From a virus (lineage: Duplodnaviria; Caudoviricetes), in IMG/VR virus record IMGVR_UViG_3300032257_000076, positions 1 to 32,867 of that record: DNA of 32,867 bases. One strand, written 5' to 3'. The position numbers and the translations under genes were made by a program. Positions 649 through 31,957 of this stretch are shown piece after piece (position 1 is the stretch's first letter; each line of letters opens with the position of its first letter). Under the pieces are notes generated by a model. It ran no database searches, was not told where the DNA came from, and worked only from the letters and a program-made list of their open reading frames with translations.

Positions 649-771
649 ATGCAGTTTAATAAAAAATTACTTTGTAAAATAGGTATTCATAAGTGGAGAT
701 ATAGTGGTGGACGAACTCACCCTTTAACTAATGGTAGATGGTGTTGTGTGAGATGCTGGGGATATTCATGA
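649..771 (+). CDS. small Cys/His (putative Zn-binding) phage protein, DUF1660-like (40 aa)
   Basis: MQFNKKLLCKIGIHKW...CCVRCWGYS: C-x2-G-x-H-K-W and C-x-R-C pattern; ATGA overlap with the next gene. Confidence 0.6.
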   Translation: MQFNKKLLCKIGIHKWRYSGGRTHPLTNGRWCCVRCWGYS

Positions 772-902
772 AACCAACTAACACAAACATAGCCCACTTC
801 TACGGCTTAACTCGCCAAACCATAGCCACATATAAGAAAGAAAAGCCTAGAACGTATGAAGCGTTAAAAAAGTATTTTATGGAGTGTACTAATGCCGTAT
901 GA
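768..902 (+). CDS. small helix-turn-helix (Cro-like) DNA-binding protein (44 aa)
   Basis: MKPTNTNIAHFYGLTRQTIATYKKEK...: IA-x-x-x-G-x-T-R-Q-T-I HTH pattern. Confidence 0.65.
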   Translation: MKPTNTNIAHFYGLTRQTIATYKKEKPRTYEALKKYFMECTNAV

Positions 903-930: not shown

Positions 931-936
931 TATACT
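931..936 (+). promoter_or_regulatory. -10 box (TATACT) for the antirepressor leader
   Basis: Predicted +1 at ~943 coincides with the first base of the long leader hairpin. Confidence 0.55.
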
Positions 937-942
937 GCCCTT

Positions 943-1071
943 ATAAGTTTTTAAAAAGTAGCAGTTTTCCGTCTAGGCTTCTGCTACGTTTTAAGGGCTT
1001 ATCTTCGGATGAGTAAAAAGCCTAGACAACTTCTTTACTTCCCTTAAAATTATCAGTCTGAAAGAAATGTT
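943..1071 (+). ncRNA. structured leader RNA copy 1 (C4/CI-like antisense/kissing-loop architecture)
   Basis: 22-position stem 943-964/981-1002 with one mismatch; second hairpin 1011-1040; loop GTCTAGG 971-977 complementary to loop CCTAGAC 1021-1027; same architecture at 30585-30719. Confidence 0.7.
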
Positions 1072-1734
1072 ATGAAACACATAGCAATCATAAAGCAAAA
1101 CATAGAAGGTGTTGAGATTAACTCAATTAGTGCTAAGGATTTACACAAGTATCTAGAAGTAAAAAAAGATTTTAGCGATTGGATTAAAACGCAGCTAGAA
1201 CTAGATAAGAGAACACAGTCTACTTTCAAAGAAGATGTTGACTATCTTAAAAACCCCTTAAAAGTTGGTAAGCAAATAGACTATATACTAACACTAGAGA
1301 CCGCAAAACATATAGCTATGATGTCAAAAGTAAAAAAAGGGCAAGAGGTAAGGCAATATTTTATAGATGTTGAAAAGGAATACAACAAAGAGTTAATTAA
1401 ATCCTTATCAGATCAACAACATAAGACACTAGCCTTATTCAATACACAAGAAGTTATGGGTGAAGTTATCACAGATCATGATAAGCGATTAAAGAACCTA
1501 GAAAACAATTCACGCCTGGAAGCATGGCAAGAGAAAAACCTGCAAGATGCGAAGAACCGTAAAGTGTATGAACTTGCAAACGGTAATGATAAATTAGCAA
1601 GCAAGCTCCACAGAAACGTATGGCGAGAGTTTAAGAAAGTGTTTCATCTTCCAAGATACAATGAAATCAGAGTAGGCAGATACGAAGACGGGCTTATGTG
1701 GCTTAATAGCGTGCAACTGCATGAGGTTGTTTAG
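1072..1734 (+). CDS. phage antirepressor, AntA/AntB N-terminal domain plus ORF6C-like C-terminal domain
   Basis: SAKDLHKYLEVKKDFSDWIK...DYILTLETAKHIAMM...GQEVRQYFIDVEK (AntA pattern); C-terminal VWREFKKVF...YNEI..GRYEDGLMWL (ORF6C-like). Confidence 0.85.
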   Translation: MKHIAIIKQNIEGVEINSISAKDLHKYLEVKKDFSDWIKTQLELDKRTQSTFKEDVDYLKNPLKVGKQIDYILTLETAKHIAMMSKVKKGQEVRQYFIDVEKEYNKELIKSLSDQQHKTLALFNTQEVMGEVITDHDKRLKNLENNSRLEAWQEKNLQDAKNRKVYELANGNDKLASKLHRNVWREFKKVFHLPRYNEIRVGRYEDGLMWLNSVQLHEVV

Positions 1735-7203: not shown

Positions 7204-7746
7204 ATGAAAAAAATTATTTTAGCAATCATGTTGAGTGTATCAGCACTTATGGCAGACGGTGTAGTAGTAGGAGCAGAATTGCTTTACGGAAAAGTTGACT
7301 CAGACCTTACAGCTTCAGCAGGTGGAGCATCAGCTTCAGTAAGTGATGATACCAAGACAGTTGCATTCTCAGCTAAAGCCGGCTATCAGTTCGATGCTGT
7401 ACGTGTAATGGGTGTACTCACTTCAGAGAAGTACAAAGATGACATGATGGTAGACAACGAGGGCAGCCTAGTATCACTTGGTGTAGAAGCCGACTATCTA
7501 ATCAATAACTTGTTTATCGGAGCTGTAGCAGCTAAAGGGCAAAAAGACTTTGATGGTACTGATATTGATTTTGTAGACTATGGAGCGAGAGTGGGTGGTA
7601 TCTTTGAACTTGGAACAGATGTGAACCTTGAAGCAGGTATACAGTACAAAGTGAGAGACTACGACAACTACAACTACATGGGCGTTGATCTTAAACTTGA
7701 CGATAAGATTGTAGGCGTATTTGTGGGTGTTTCGTTCAATTTATGA
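7204..7746 (+). CDS. outer-membrane beta-barrel protein (approx. 8 strands, OmpA/OmpX/Lom-like size)
   Basis: Sec signal MKKIILAIMLSVSALMA; alternating amphipathic strands (KAGYQF, LGVEADY, YGARVGG, LEAGIQY); C-terminal VFVGVSFNL beta-signal-like end. Confidence 0.85.
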   Translation: MKKIILAIMLSVSALMADGVVVGAELLYGKVDSDLTASAGGASASVSDDTKTVAFSAKAGYQFDAVRVMGVLTSEKYKDDMMVDNEGSLVSLGVEADYLINNLFIGAVAAKGQKDFDGTDIDFVDYGARVGGIFELGTDVNLEAGIQYKVRDYDNYNYMGVDLKLDDKIVGVFVGVSFNL

Positions 7747-30526: not shown

Positions 30527-30578
30527 ATTATAACTAAGTAATAAATAATTTGCAATAGCTTTTTAAATAAGCTATAAT
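30527..30578. promoter_or_regulatory. divergent promoter pair sharing one palindromic -35 (TTGCAA 30550-30555)
   Basis: TATAAT on + at 30573-30578 and on - at 30527-30532, each exactly 17 nt from TTGCAA. Confidence 0.8.
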
Positions 30579-30584
30579 ATGTGC

Positions 30585-30719
30585 AAGCTTTTAAAGAAGT
30601 AAGGGCAAAGGGTCAGTCGAATACCTGCTAACCCCTTGCTTCTTTAAGGGCTTAATGAGTTGGCGAAATTCGACACTTCTTCTAACTCCCCTTAAATAAT
30701 AACGTCGGAAAGAAAGCAA
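30585..30719 (+). ncRNA. structured leader RNA copy 2 (C4/CI-like architecture)
   Basis: Uninterrupted 21-bp stem 30585-30605/30633-30653; hairpin 30657-30688; GTCGAAT 30616-30622 complementary to ATTCGAC 30668-30674; GTCGGA near the RBS. Confidence 0.7.
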
Positions 30720-31163
30720 ATGAATAATGCTTTTAGATTTTACGGAAAACCAGTACCACATGTTTTAGAAAAAGAAGCCTTATTAATACAAGGCCTATAT
30801 AATCTCAATGATCTTCAGTTAGCAGGGCTAATGAAAATACATGACTTCTTTAAGCGTGTAACATTATTTGACTGTTCCCCTTACAACCTTGAATTAGTAG
30901 TTTATAGATATGGGTCGGATAGTGGAAAACAAGAAGAGATAAGCAGGAATAAACTTCCGTGGAATACACTGTCTTTTTTTGATGATGCTTATGATAAATG
31001 TAGTGATGGAGCAAAACATTTCAGTGATGATATAGGACATAAGTTCTTCAATAGATTTGCAATCAAAGTTCTAAACGACATAAATAATTTAACTGATTAT
31101 GTAAATGTTGGAGTTATAGAACAGAAAGAAGACGCTCCATCTCGTGTCGTTGAGTTCAAATAA
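30720..31163 (+). CDS. hypothetical protein upstream of the replication initiator
   Basis: ORF track; GLYNLNDL weakly recalls the KilA-N start motif (low confidence). Confidence 0.7.
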   Translation: MNNAFRFYGKPVPHVLEKEALLIQGLYNLNDLQLAGLMKIHDFFKRVTLFDCSPYNLELVVYRYGSDSGKQEEISRNKLPWNTLSFFDDAYDKCSDGAKHFSDDIGHKFFNRFAIKVLNDINNLTDYVNVGVIEQKEDAPSRVVEFK

Positions 31164-31957
31164 TGACTGAGCATTTTACATTTTTTGAAAGCTACTACAA
31201 GTCAGTAAAAGACTTGCCAGATGATATAAAAGCTGAATTTTATGATGTATTATTCAATTATGCGTTATATGATAATGATATTTCAGAGGAAGCAAACCCC
31301 GTAGTTAGGGCTATTTTCTTAATGGCTAAACCAAACTTAGACAAAAGCAAAGCAAGAAGAGATGCAGGCAAGCAAGGTGGAAGCAAACCACAACCAAAAA
31401 GTAAGCAAACGGAAGCAAACGTAAGCAAACCTAAGCAAGTGCCAAGCGATAAGGATAAGGAAGAGGATAAGGATAAGGATAAGGAAGAGGATAAAGAGAA
31501 TGATAAAGAAAAAGAGAATAAAGCTTTTTCGTTTAATCTCTCAAAAGCTATTCAATATAATTCTCTTTCTAAAAGTTATCAAGATAAACTATTGGGATAC
31601 GCTGTTGTAAAAGATGGAGCTTATCAGTTACAAAAGTTCTTAGACCATAACTTAGCCAAGGGCAGCAAATATAAAGACTGGTCAAGAGCATATAACACAT
31701 GGGTAAGCAATTCAATCGAATACAGTAAAGGAGATTATAACCCTAATAACTACATAAAGGTTTTAACTAATCACCCTGATTACGATAACGTATATGTACC
31801 TTACGGGCAAAATAAAGCGTTCAGTGAGGAATATGATTACATTTGTGATTTTGACGTTAAAGAGACACCTAAGATTGTTTCAGGGAACGATCCTGCTTAT
31901 AATCATGACAGAGACATAACAAAAGTAATTAACTCAAAATTAGATGGATGGAAATAA
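31163..31957 (+). CDS. phage replication initiator (DUF6291-like N-terminus)
   Basis: FTFFESYY...LFNYAL...IFLMAKPNLDKSKARRDAGKQGG, DKDK low-complexity linker, C-terminal YKDWSRAYNTW helix; internal iterons. Confidence 0.8.
   Translation: MTEHFTFFESYYKSVKDLPDDIKAEFYDVLFNYALYDNDISEEANPVVRAIFLMAKPNLDKSKARRDAGKQGGSKPQPKSKQTEANVSKPKQVPSDKDKEEDKDKDKEEDKENDKEKENKAFSFNLSKAIQYNSLSKSYQDKLLGYAVVKDGAYQLQKFLDHNLAKGSKYKDWSRAYNTWVSNSIEYSKGDYNPNNYIKVLTNHPDYDNVYVPYGQNKAFSEEYDYICDFDVKETPKIVSGNDPAYNHDRDITKVINSKLDGWK
31370..31520 (+). repeat. putative replication origin: 10-bp iterons plus a purine-rich tract
   Basis: GTAAGCAAAC GGAAGCAAAC GTAAGCAAAC CTAAGCAAGT (31401-31440), another GGAAGCAAAC at 31379-31388, then GATAAG/GAAGAG repeats. 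Confidence 0.7.

Follow-up and report, generated by a model that had tools for sequence, protein, structure and literature searches.

The described regulatory RNAs that come closest to the leader analysed here are C4 of P1 and P7 (RF01695) with the c4-a1b1 targets, the seqA-CI-seqC arrangement of P4, IsrK of Gifsy-1 (RF01394) with STnc1160/orf45-anrP, and the repZ/Inc system of IncI-alpha and IncB plasmids. C4 and CI are same-strand antisense elements placed between an upstream and a ribosome-site partner; C4 has two antisense loops (a' and b') with paired targets, and a2/b2 elements and icd belong to the same arrangement. IsrK, a hairpin RNA made near the promoter, is complementary to a strand that lies further on, ahead of an antirepressor, and PMC4825925 assigns the pairing in cis that corresponds to x':x below to an inactive fold. 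The leader would work in a manner like that of the isrK-STnc1160 and seqA-CI-seqC triads (PMC4825925, PMC10111431) and of repZ/Inc, without being a member of any of them. For ColIb-P9, PMC4705826 describes one loop that pairs either with a site directly 5' of the Shine-Dalgarno (SD) sequence, which is activating, or with Inc RNA.

The window, by which we mean the whole stretch of DNA analysed, is a complete virus record of 32,867 bases whose head, connector and tail genes are of podovirus type and whose closest capsid relatives belong to MEP301 and other phages of 31-37 kb. Before its antirepressor-family gene lies a conserved leader of approximately 130 bases, in which a central loop, x, is complementary both to an upstream loop, x', and to a stretch at the ribosome site, z:

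768 to 902, plus strand: 44-aa helix-turn-helix-like open reading frame just 5' of the leader
931 to 936, plus strand: -10-like hexamer TATACT, 6 nt 5' of P1; predicted promoter, start near 943
943 to 1002, plus strand: hairpin P1, with conserved U.G pairs at its base; candidate short regulatory RNA
971 to 980, plus strand: x', address sequence in the P1 loop, complement of x
989 to 997, plus strand: y', 3' strand of P1, whose partners are the P1 5' strand or y
998 to 1013, plus strand: UUCG mini-hairpin, in an alternative three-way-junction fold only and not universal
1011 to 1040, plus strand: hairpin P2 with a 9-nt loop (1021-1029); 9 of 10 pairs with double changes in close homologs
1018 to 1027, plus strand: x, the hub, pairing with x' (10 bp) or z (5 bp)
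1041 to 1049, plus strand: y, perfect 9-pair complement of y'
1056 to 1064, plus strand: z (1056-1060, GTCTG) running into a weak SD-like GAAAG (1060-1064)
1072 to 1734, plus strand: AntA/AntB + ORF6C antirepressor-family gene (220 aa), directly behind the leader

Architecture of the leader and its relation to described systems

The P1 stem (943-964/981-1002) comprises 21 pairs, three of them U.G, and one A.C mismatch; its stability of -23.7 kcal/mol (z-score -5.6) was matched by none of 200 shuffles, and 11 of the 18 pairs of the main helix show double changes among 13 close homologs. P2 is weak by itself (-3.0 kcal/mol, z-score -0.7, 41/200 shuffles). Because the ten perfect pairs between x' and x cross the helix of y' and y, the two cannot both be nested in cis. 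Perfect runs of at least 10 bp and at least 9 bp occurred together in only 7 of 3000 dinucleotide shuffles of 943-1071, and in a scan of the genome by 1637 scanning windows they coincided only in the three that cover this locus. The segment 989-1049 can also fold as a C4-like three-way junction (GGG, UUCG hairpin, major hairpin, CCC), which has a z-score of -1.3, was equalled by 21/200 shuffles and has a closing stem of 5-9 bp. The UUCG mini-hairpin overlaps both large hairpins and is therefore part of an alternative fold.

The sequence-only reading of this locus had located the stem, the loops, the alternative partners 989-997/1041-1049 and the GTCTG at 1056-1060 correctly. It had counted 7 nt of loop complementarity where there are ten perfect pairs; the mini-hairpin it placed at 1001-1010 exists but extends to 998-1013 and is missing from the window's second leader copy; and the second hairpin (1011-1040) does display the complement in its loop, as 32 of 39 leaders do, yet is weak alone. 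Two other candidate parts, a copy of x at 843-851 as an additional upstream target and a 12-codon open reading frame (1009-1047) as a leader peptide, were rejected as unconserved.

The same reading had called the element C4/CI-like and proposed an Infernal/Rfam check for c4 models. That check came back empty: there was no match in the window at the gathering threshold, none over 700-1200 at E<=10, and no C4, isrK or related match on 20 + 20 homolog loci at E<=10, and in a positive control C4, isrK or sRNA-Xcc1 was found on 8 of 14 proteobacterial ant loci, with isrK on locus L088 among these matches. Judged by its sequence, the leader is not a member of C4/CI or IsrK and matches no family catalogued in Rfam; of the likeness to C4/CI, the three-site topology and the possible C4-like junction hold, and membership does not.

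The resemblances to C4 are that of a same-strand antisense element between two partners, the outline of the alternative junction, and an address variation reminiscent of P1/P7 heteroimmunity. There are also differences, for which the features of C4 were taken from PMC5320573, PMC12197685, PMC5499578 and PMC2864571. According to PMC5320573 the closing stem of C4 opens, on its 5' side, with a GGW site for RNase P, whereas the corresponding stem here starts with a U-run at 989 and lacks GGW (both window copies were checked); the junction overlaps the upstream hairpin; its closing stem of 5-9 bp compares with 17 in the model consensus; and there is one antisense loop instead of two. With IsrK the leader shares the promoter-proximal hairpin complementary to a downstream strand, the position ahead of an antirepressor, and the alternative pairing of that strand at the ribosome site, but it has one long hairpin and not three, a U-tract terminator that is unclear at best, and a z that lies downstream of x directly at the main gene, with no coupled orf45. 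No small coupled frame of the icd or kil type is present either, z being at the start of the main gene, in contrast to C4, CI and IsrK alike.

By analogy, the closest logic to that of the leader is that of repZ/Inc of ColIb-P9. According to PMC4705826, PMC8383071 and PMC8053102, the target loop of IncI-alpha and IncB repZ/Inc engages either a short site immediately 5' of a weak SD or a kissing RNA loop, and that system controls replication genes, as some leaders would. The pairing of x immediately upstream of the SD, predicted from co-variation and spacing, would be a repZ-like feature. Unlike repZ/Inc, the leader brings its own competing loop, which is encoded by the strand of the target and sits in the transcript's 5' hairpin, has no leader peptide and no conserved SD-masking hairpin, and combines a highly variable address with a phage context.

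Co-variation of the three sites and range of the family

The collection of homologs began from relatives of the Ant protein, and the same layout was found, as judged by eye, directly before the gene in 23 of 52 inspected loci, window included. A covariance model built from the P1 pairs only was then used to find further leaders, among them the window's second copy. From 48 candidates, two were dropped (L163, whose 5' end is cut, and L165, a repeat and false positive), leaving 46 leaders, 39 of them below 80% identity; seven leaders found later also possess complementary x' and x plus a z-like site. Since ten divergent leaders were chosen by eye, partly via the x':x helix, the x':x test is partly circular for those ten; x:z and y':y were not used in choosing them, and for leaders that the model found, each of the three helices is an independent test.

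Segments of each of the 39 leaders were paired with the leader's own partner or with that of another leader in 20000 permutations, which only partly remove relatedness between leaders. Cognate pairing was stronger than mismatched pairing for x':x (-17.1 vs -6.2 kcal/mol), for x:z (-4.3 vs -1.9 kcal/mol) and for y':y (-5.2 vs -3.4 kcal/mol), each at p<=0.0001, and the same-sense control of x' against z was flat (p=0.44). The x helices of four leaders (the second window copy, L212, L145 and L162) were re-picked by hand; beforehand the x:z comparison stood at -4.0 vs -1.9 with the same p. The cognate excess persists within each structural subtype (p<=0.0014), namely A, with x' in the apical loop (20 leaders), and B, in which x' overlaps the upper stem (19 leaders), and also persists when each of the 16 address classes is represented by a single leader.

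Loop-loop co-variation, whose absence from homologous leaders had been named as what would speak against the kissing loops, is strong: among the 13 close homologs x':x shows double changes in 10 of 10 columns and is 92.8% paired, a result reached by 0/500 shuffles. The corresponding figures are 2/8 for y':y and 1/5 for x:z, the latter being weak because this subgroup varies little at z. A perfect partner of y' lies inside P1 in 1 of 34 leaders and downstream of x in 28 of 34, and the AAG of y' faces U-runs in P1 but CTT in y, which points to a deliberate alternative pairing and to the plus strand. The loop that holds x in 32/39 leaders is 7-9 nt long with a YUNR-type motif at x in 25 of those 32 (a count for which no background was computed); YUNR-type loop motifs are a feature of kissing systems. 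One loop thus has two mutually exclusive co-varying partners, one of them at the ribosome site, and on this co-variation of its three sites we regard the leader as a real RNA family.

The family appears to be narrow. Of the 106 and 21 loci picked up by two pattern scans, 8 and 9 were retained by the covariance model. An exact palindromic pattern gave 28 matches in viral contigs, of which only L020 (the L001 contig) is a leader element, and a longer exact pattern gave none; among 194 genomes of the genus of G001 a pattern search matched 15, of which only the match in G001 is a known copy, the others looking chance-like by inspection. The model search of genomes found leaders in at least 3 of 151 (phylum), at least 2 of 151 (family) and at least 2 of 151 (order) assemblies, which are lower bounds because about 22 candidates were scored per genome. 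No leader was found at 29 other Campylobacterota ant loci or in the cultured phage NrS-3, and blastn of two leaders against phages and of one against plasmids gave chance matches or none. The absence from the 29 ant loci and the rarity in host assemblies suggest that the leader is confined to phages of Sulfurimonas-like bacteria. For the window itself a host of the Sulfurimonas type is suggested by the fact that two of the three genome loci with a relative are Sulfurimonas assemblies.

Two side observations concern leaders of uncertain or different type. Sulfurimonas phage SNW-1 (L363) has one weak, partial model match on the minus strand (30832-30939), about 240 nt upstream of dnaB, with a short P1 lacking x', a P2 loop with the rUUGGCG motif named for IncI targets, a matching z-like site and no start codon in register; if real, it would be a cultured system. 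Another kind of leader, a long hairpin, stands before ant homologs at L115 (about 2380-2500) and just 5' of the starts in L137 and L138; in these three the inner stem contains a 12-nt complement of the strong SD region.

A second copy and the genes behind the leaders

The window's second leader differs from the first in its address and has a promoter of its own:

30550 to 30578, plus strand: promoter of the second leader (TTGCAA, 17 nt, TATAAT)
30581 to 30722, plus strand: second leader, with P1 at 30585-30653, x' at 30616-30622 and y' at 30643-30650
30668 to 30674, plus strand: x of the second leader
30689 to 30696, plus strand: y of the second leader
30704 to 30709, plus strand: z of the second leader
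30720 to 31957, plus strand: genes behind it, a 147-aa open reading frame of no known function followed by a DUF6291 protein

This promoter is overlain by a 7-bp inverted repeat with a 7-nt spacer (30555-30575), a possible operator. The DUF6291 protein is probably a replication initiator, both of its PHROG families being common to the protein of L112, which also matches a replication-initiation family; its gene contains short tandem purine-rich repeats (31449-31515) that could be iteron-like or merely a low-complexity linker.

Across the family the genes behind leaders encode Ant and Rha regulators, replication initiators, helicase loaders, primase, helicase and an HNH nuclease. Since leaders also precede initiators, primase and helicase, the element is not specific to antirepressors, contrary to what the sequence-only reading had supposed. 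In this phage, moreover, "antirepressor" is a family label only, because neither an integrase nor a CI-type repressor was found among the scanned open reading frames (19 + 19 + 42, some short ones lying outside the scan).

Six records hold two or three leader copies. Distinct leaders within a record have addresses that do not pair with each other, and one duplicated unit shares its address; cross-pairing between co-resident copies is not lower than between unrelated leaders, which also rarely cross-pair, so that insulation is seen, with no sign that it has been selected. In the related phage G519 the RNA of the replication leader is the same as the window's, but the ant leader bears another address at x', x and z.

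Several observations accompany these copies. In L133 (108-202) and L128 (about 450-505) an additional P1-like hairpin with another loop sequence stands in tandem immediately 5' of a complete leader; in L043 (2288-2453) a leader is followed by a frameshifted ant start, and 2.6 kb further on there is another leader with an ant start, both intact; and abiF RNA motif matches, one of them above the gathering score, occur near leaders in L324 (103-139), L118 (2279-2315) and L121 (1820-1856). The 44-aa helix-turn-helix-like frame before the first leader is missing at this place in phage G519; its protein has 11 other close relatives, its nearest atlas clusters are Campylobacterota transcriptional regulators, and it may be a small repressor in a phage without CI. 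Elsewhere in the window, a 180-aa open reading frame (7204-7746) without Pfam or PHROG match has a signal-peptide-like N-terminus and a C-terminal pattern resembling an outer-membrane beta-barrel, and is possibly an exclusion or host-surface protein.

How competition for one loop may set expression

Competition among x', x and z very probably regulates the downstream gene, in one direction or the other. As to the direction, our main reading, to which we give a probability of roughly 0.4, is that a pseudoknot of x with z is the ON state and a kiss of P1 on x the OFF state. Modelled in this way, x:z would form just 5' of a weak ribosome site and permit translation, and x held by x' of the stable 5' hairpin would prevent the pseudoknot. 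P1 would begin at the transcription start and accumulate as a short RNA through leaky termination or processing, and would then kiss x on new transcripts, although x' could also take hold of x within one molecule. The outcome would be strong expression just after entry that declines with the accumulation of P1 RNA, so that the amounts of regulator and replication proteins are kept in check, and an address of 4-7 nt would make control specific to each leader and phage. This net course would equal the burst and shut-off proposed by the sequence-only reading, with the roles of the two RNAs exchanged. Where transcripts read through or are cut, pairing of y with y' probably rearranges the base of P1, and of all the pairings this one has the least clear role.

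The spacing of x and z is that of an H-type pseudoknot, with median loops of 1, 1.5 and 15 nt and a stem of 6 bp, and at 4-8 bp the helix is too short for a target in trans and better suited to a pseudoknot in cis; the x':x helix has the strength to form in either way. The register of x:z is fixed near -11, the helix ending at -13 to -9 in 22 of 28 leaders. The z site of 4-8 nt abuts GAAAG, which we take to be an SD site from its position and from the Campylobacterota 16S tail; most other genes of the phage have sites of the AAGG, GGAG or GAGG type. In 19 of 38 leaders P1 is preceded, at a distance of 3-14 nt, by a -10 box of at least 5/6 matches, as against 110 of 726 background positions, and several leaders without it carry a small hairpin there; a generic promoter scan did not call TATACT at 931-936. 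A generic scan called no terminator after P1, and 1-6 U occur in the 8 nt after y' across leaders. On average over 28 leaders the 5' hairpin is the more stable candidate, at -23.9 kcal/mol against -11.3 for the junction fragment.

Besides the lack of a called terminator, several results count against the main reading. There is no conserved SD-masking helix that a pseudoknot could open (tract against ribosome site, p=0.95), the only one being in the window's first copy (1003-1010 with 1056-1064); no leader peptide is conserved, ATG-started frames in the 39 leaders being absent or unrelated; and blocking x or x' left ribosome-site accessibility unchanged (1.46, 1.41 and 1.58 kcal/mol; p=0.98 and 0.22) in nested folds, which do not include pseudoknots. 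A second antisense element of the C4 kind was looked for as well: no further conserved partner was found in the 300 nt upstream (p=0.20-0.22, 35 leaders), and over the first 150 coding nt the values were p=0.97 for x and p=0.02 for x', uncorrected over four tests.

The sign of the switch could be reversed. A helix over the first one or two SD bases could, by analogy, equally well inhibit, and the preQ1 riboswitch is a precedent for inhibition of this kind. Under an IsrK-like activation, x:z would block the ribosome site and a short P1 RNA would bind x in trans and free it, giving positive feedback or a delay. In its favour, the first SD-like base is overlapped by z in 30 of 36 leaders; but the purine run loses no more than 2 nt to x:z in 33 of 36, most of it being left free. 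The layout of isrK is the same (PMC4825925): a short 5' RNA arises from the same promoter and pairs with a downstream strand which in its absence covers the ribosome site, and an antirepressor follows; against this, no isrK model matches, and positive feedback would be a less usual logic for replication initiators. We consider such activation unlikely.

Somewhat less probable still is a sequence of events like that in P4 and P1, in which x':x in cis would keep the site open on entry and a processed junction RNA (989-1049) would then bind x' and z and shut expression off. The resemblance of the 989-1049 junction to the C4 consensus, the co-variation of y' with y, and the target-antisense-target order, which matches seqA-CI-seqC, all suit it; the junction fold, though, does not exceed its shuffles significantly, the closing stem is short by the standard of C4 and lacks a GGW start, a cut inside P1 would be required, and only 4-8 bp would be available to z. 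The target-antisense-target switch of the sequence-only reading survives in one respect, in that the GTCTG site co-varies with the same loop, and falters in that the middle junction is a weak fold with only 4-8 bp to offer to the ribosome-site copy.

A switch acting in cis only, in which the choice between x' and z would fall to the kinetics of folding, to a binding protein or to a nuclease that cuts P1, with no RNA in trans and addresses that drift neutrally, strikes us as improbable. In its favour are the lack of any sign of selection for orthogonality and the strength of the cis duplex of x' and x, which over the 19 leaders of subtype B averages -21.5 kcal/mol and in many cases is the fold of lowest energy. 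The display of x in a loop of the kissing type argues against it, and a kiss in cis that joins the tip of a 21-bp stem to that of a 10-bp stem would seem strained. A regulator transcribed from a minus-strand promoter between y and z, as with sar or Inc, is very improbable: the minus-strand -10-like box at -40 to -12 of 18/39 leaders (mostly at -19 to -24) and the minus-strand promoter that a generic scan lists at 1076-1049 are offset by such a box in 31% of shuffles, 12/39 other window genes and 7/27 leaderless starts, the conserved U.G pairs function on the plus strand only, and x' would be left unexplained.

The three-way co-variation of one short address makes the mechanism testable by a few point and compensatory changes. 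No published description of the leader was found in openly readable full text, a coverage outside which most subscription papers lie, and the main text of PMC6429828, in the portion available, makes no mention of phage or antisense motifs. The leader would be a form of address-coded antisense control that brings together traits of C4/IsrK and of the IncI pseudoknot, which have been studied separately, and it would widen such control, known at antirepressor loci of Proteobacteria, to phages of Campylobacterota and to genes of replication. Its members also supply a large natural set of what is probably a compact translation switch, with addresses that do not pair with one another. A broader picture, which we offer tentatively and regard as doubtful, is that of an undescribed kind of modular, RNA-only control in phages of the Sulfurimonas type: each early operon would have its own addressed switch, whose transcript would regulate itself by antisense pairing of the 5' hairpin, in competition with a pseudoknot at the ribosome site. 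Several orthogonal switches per genome might set the dose of regulator and replication proteins and distinguish self from non-self in phages that, like this one, show neither a CI repressor nor an integrase among the frames scanned.
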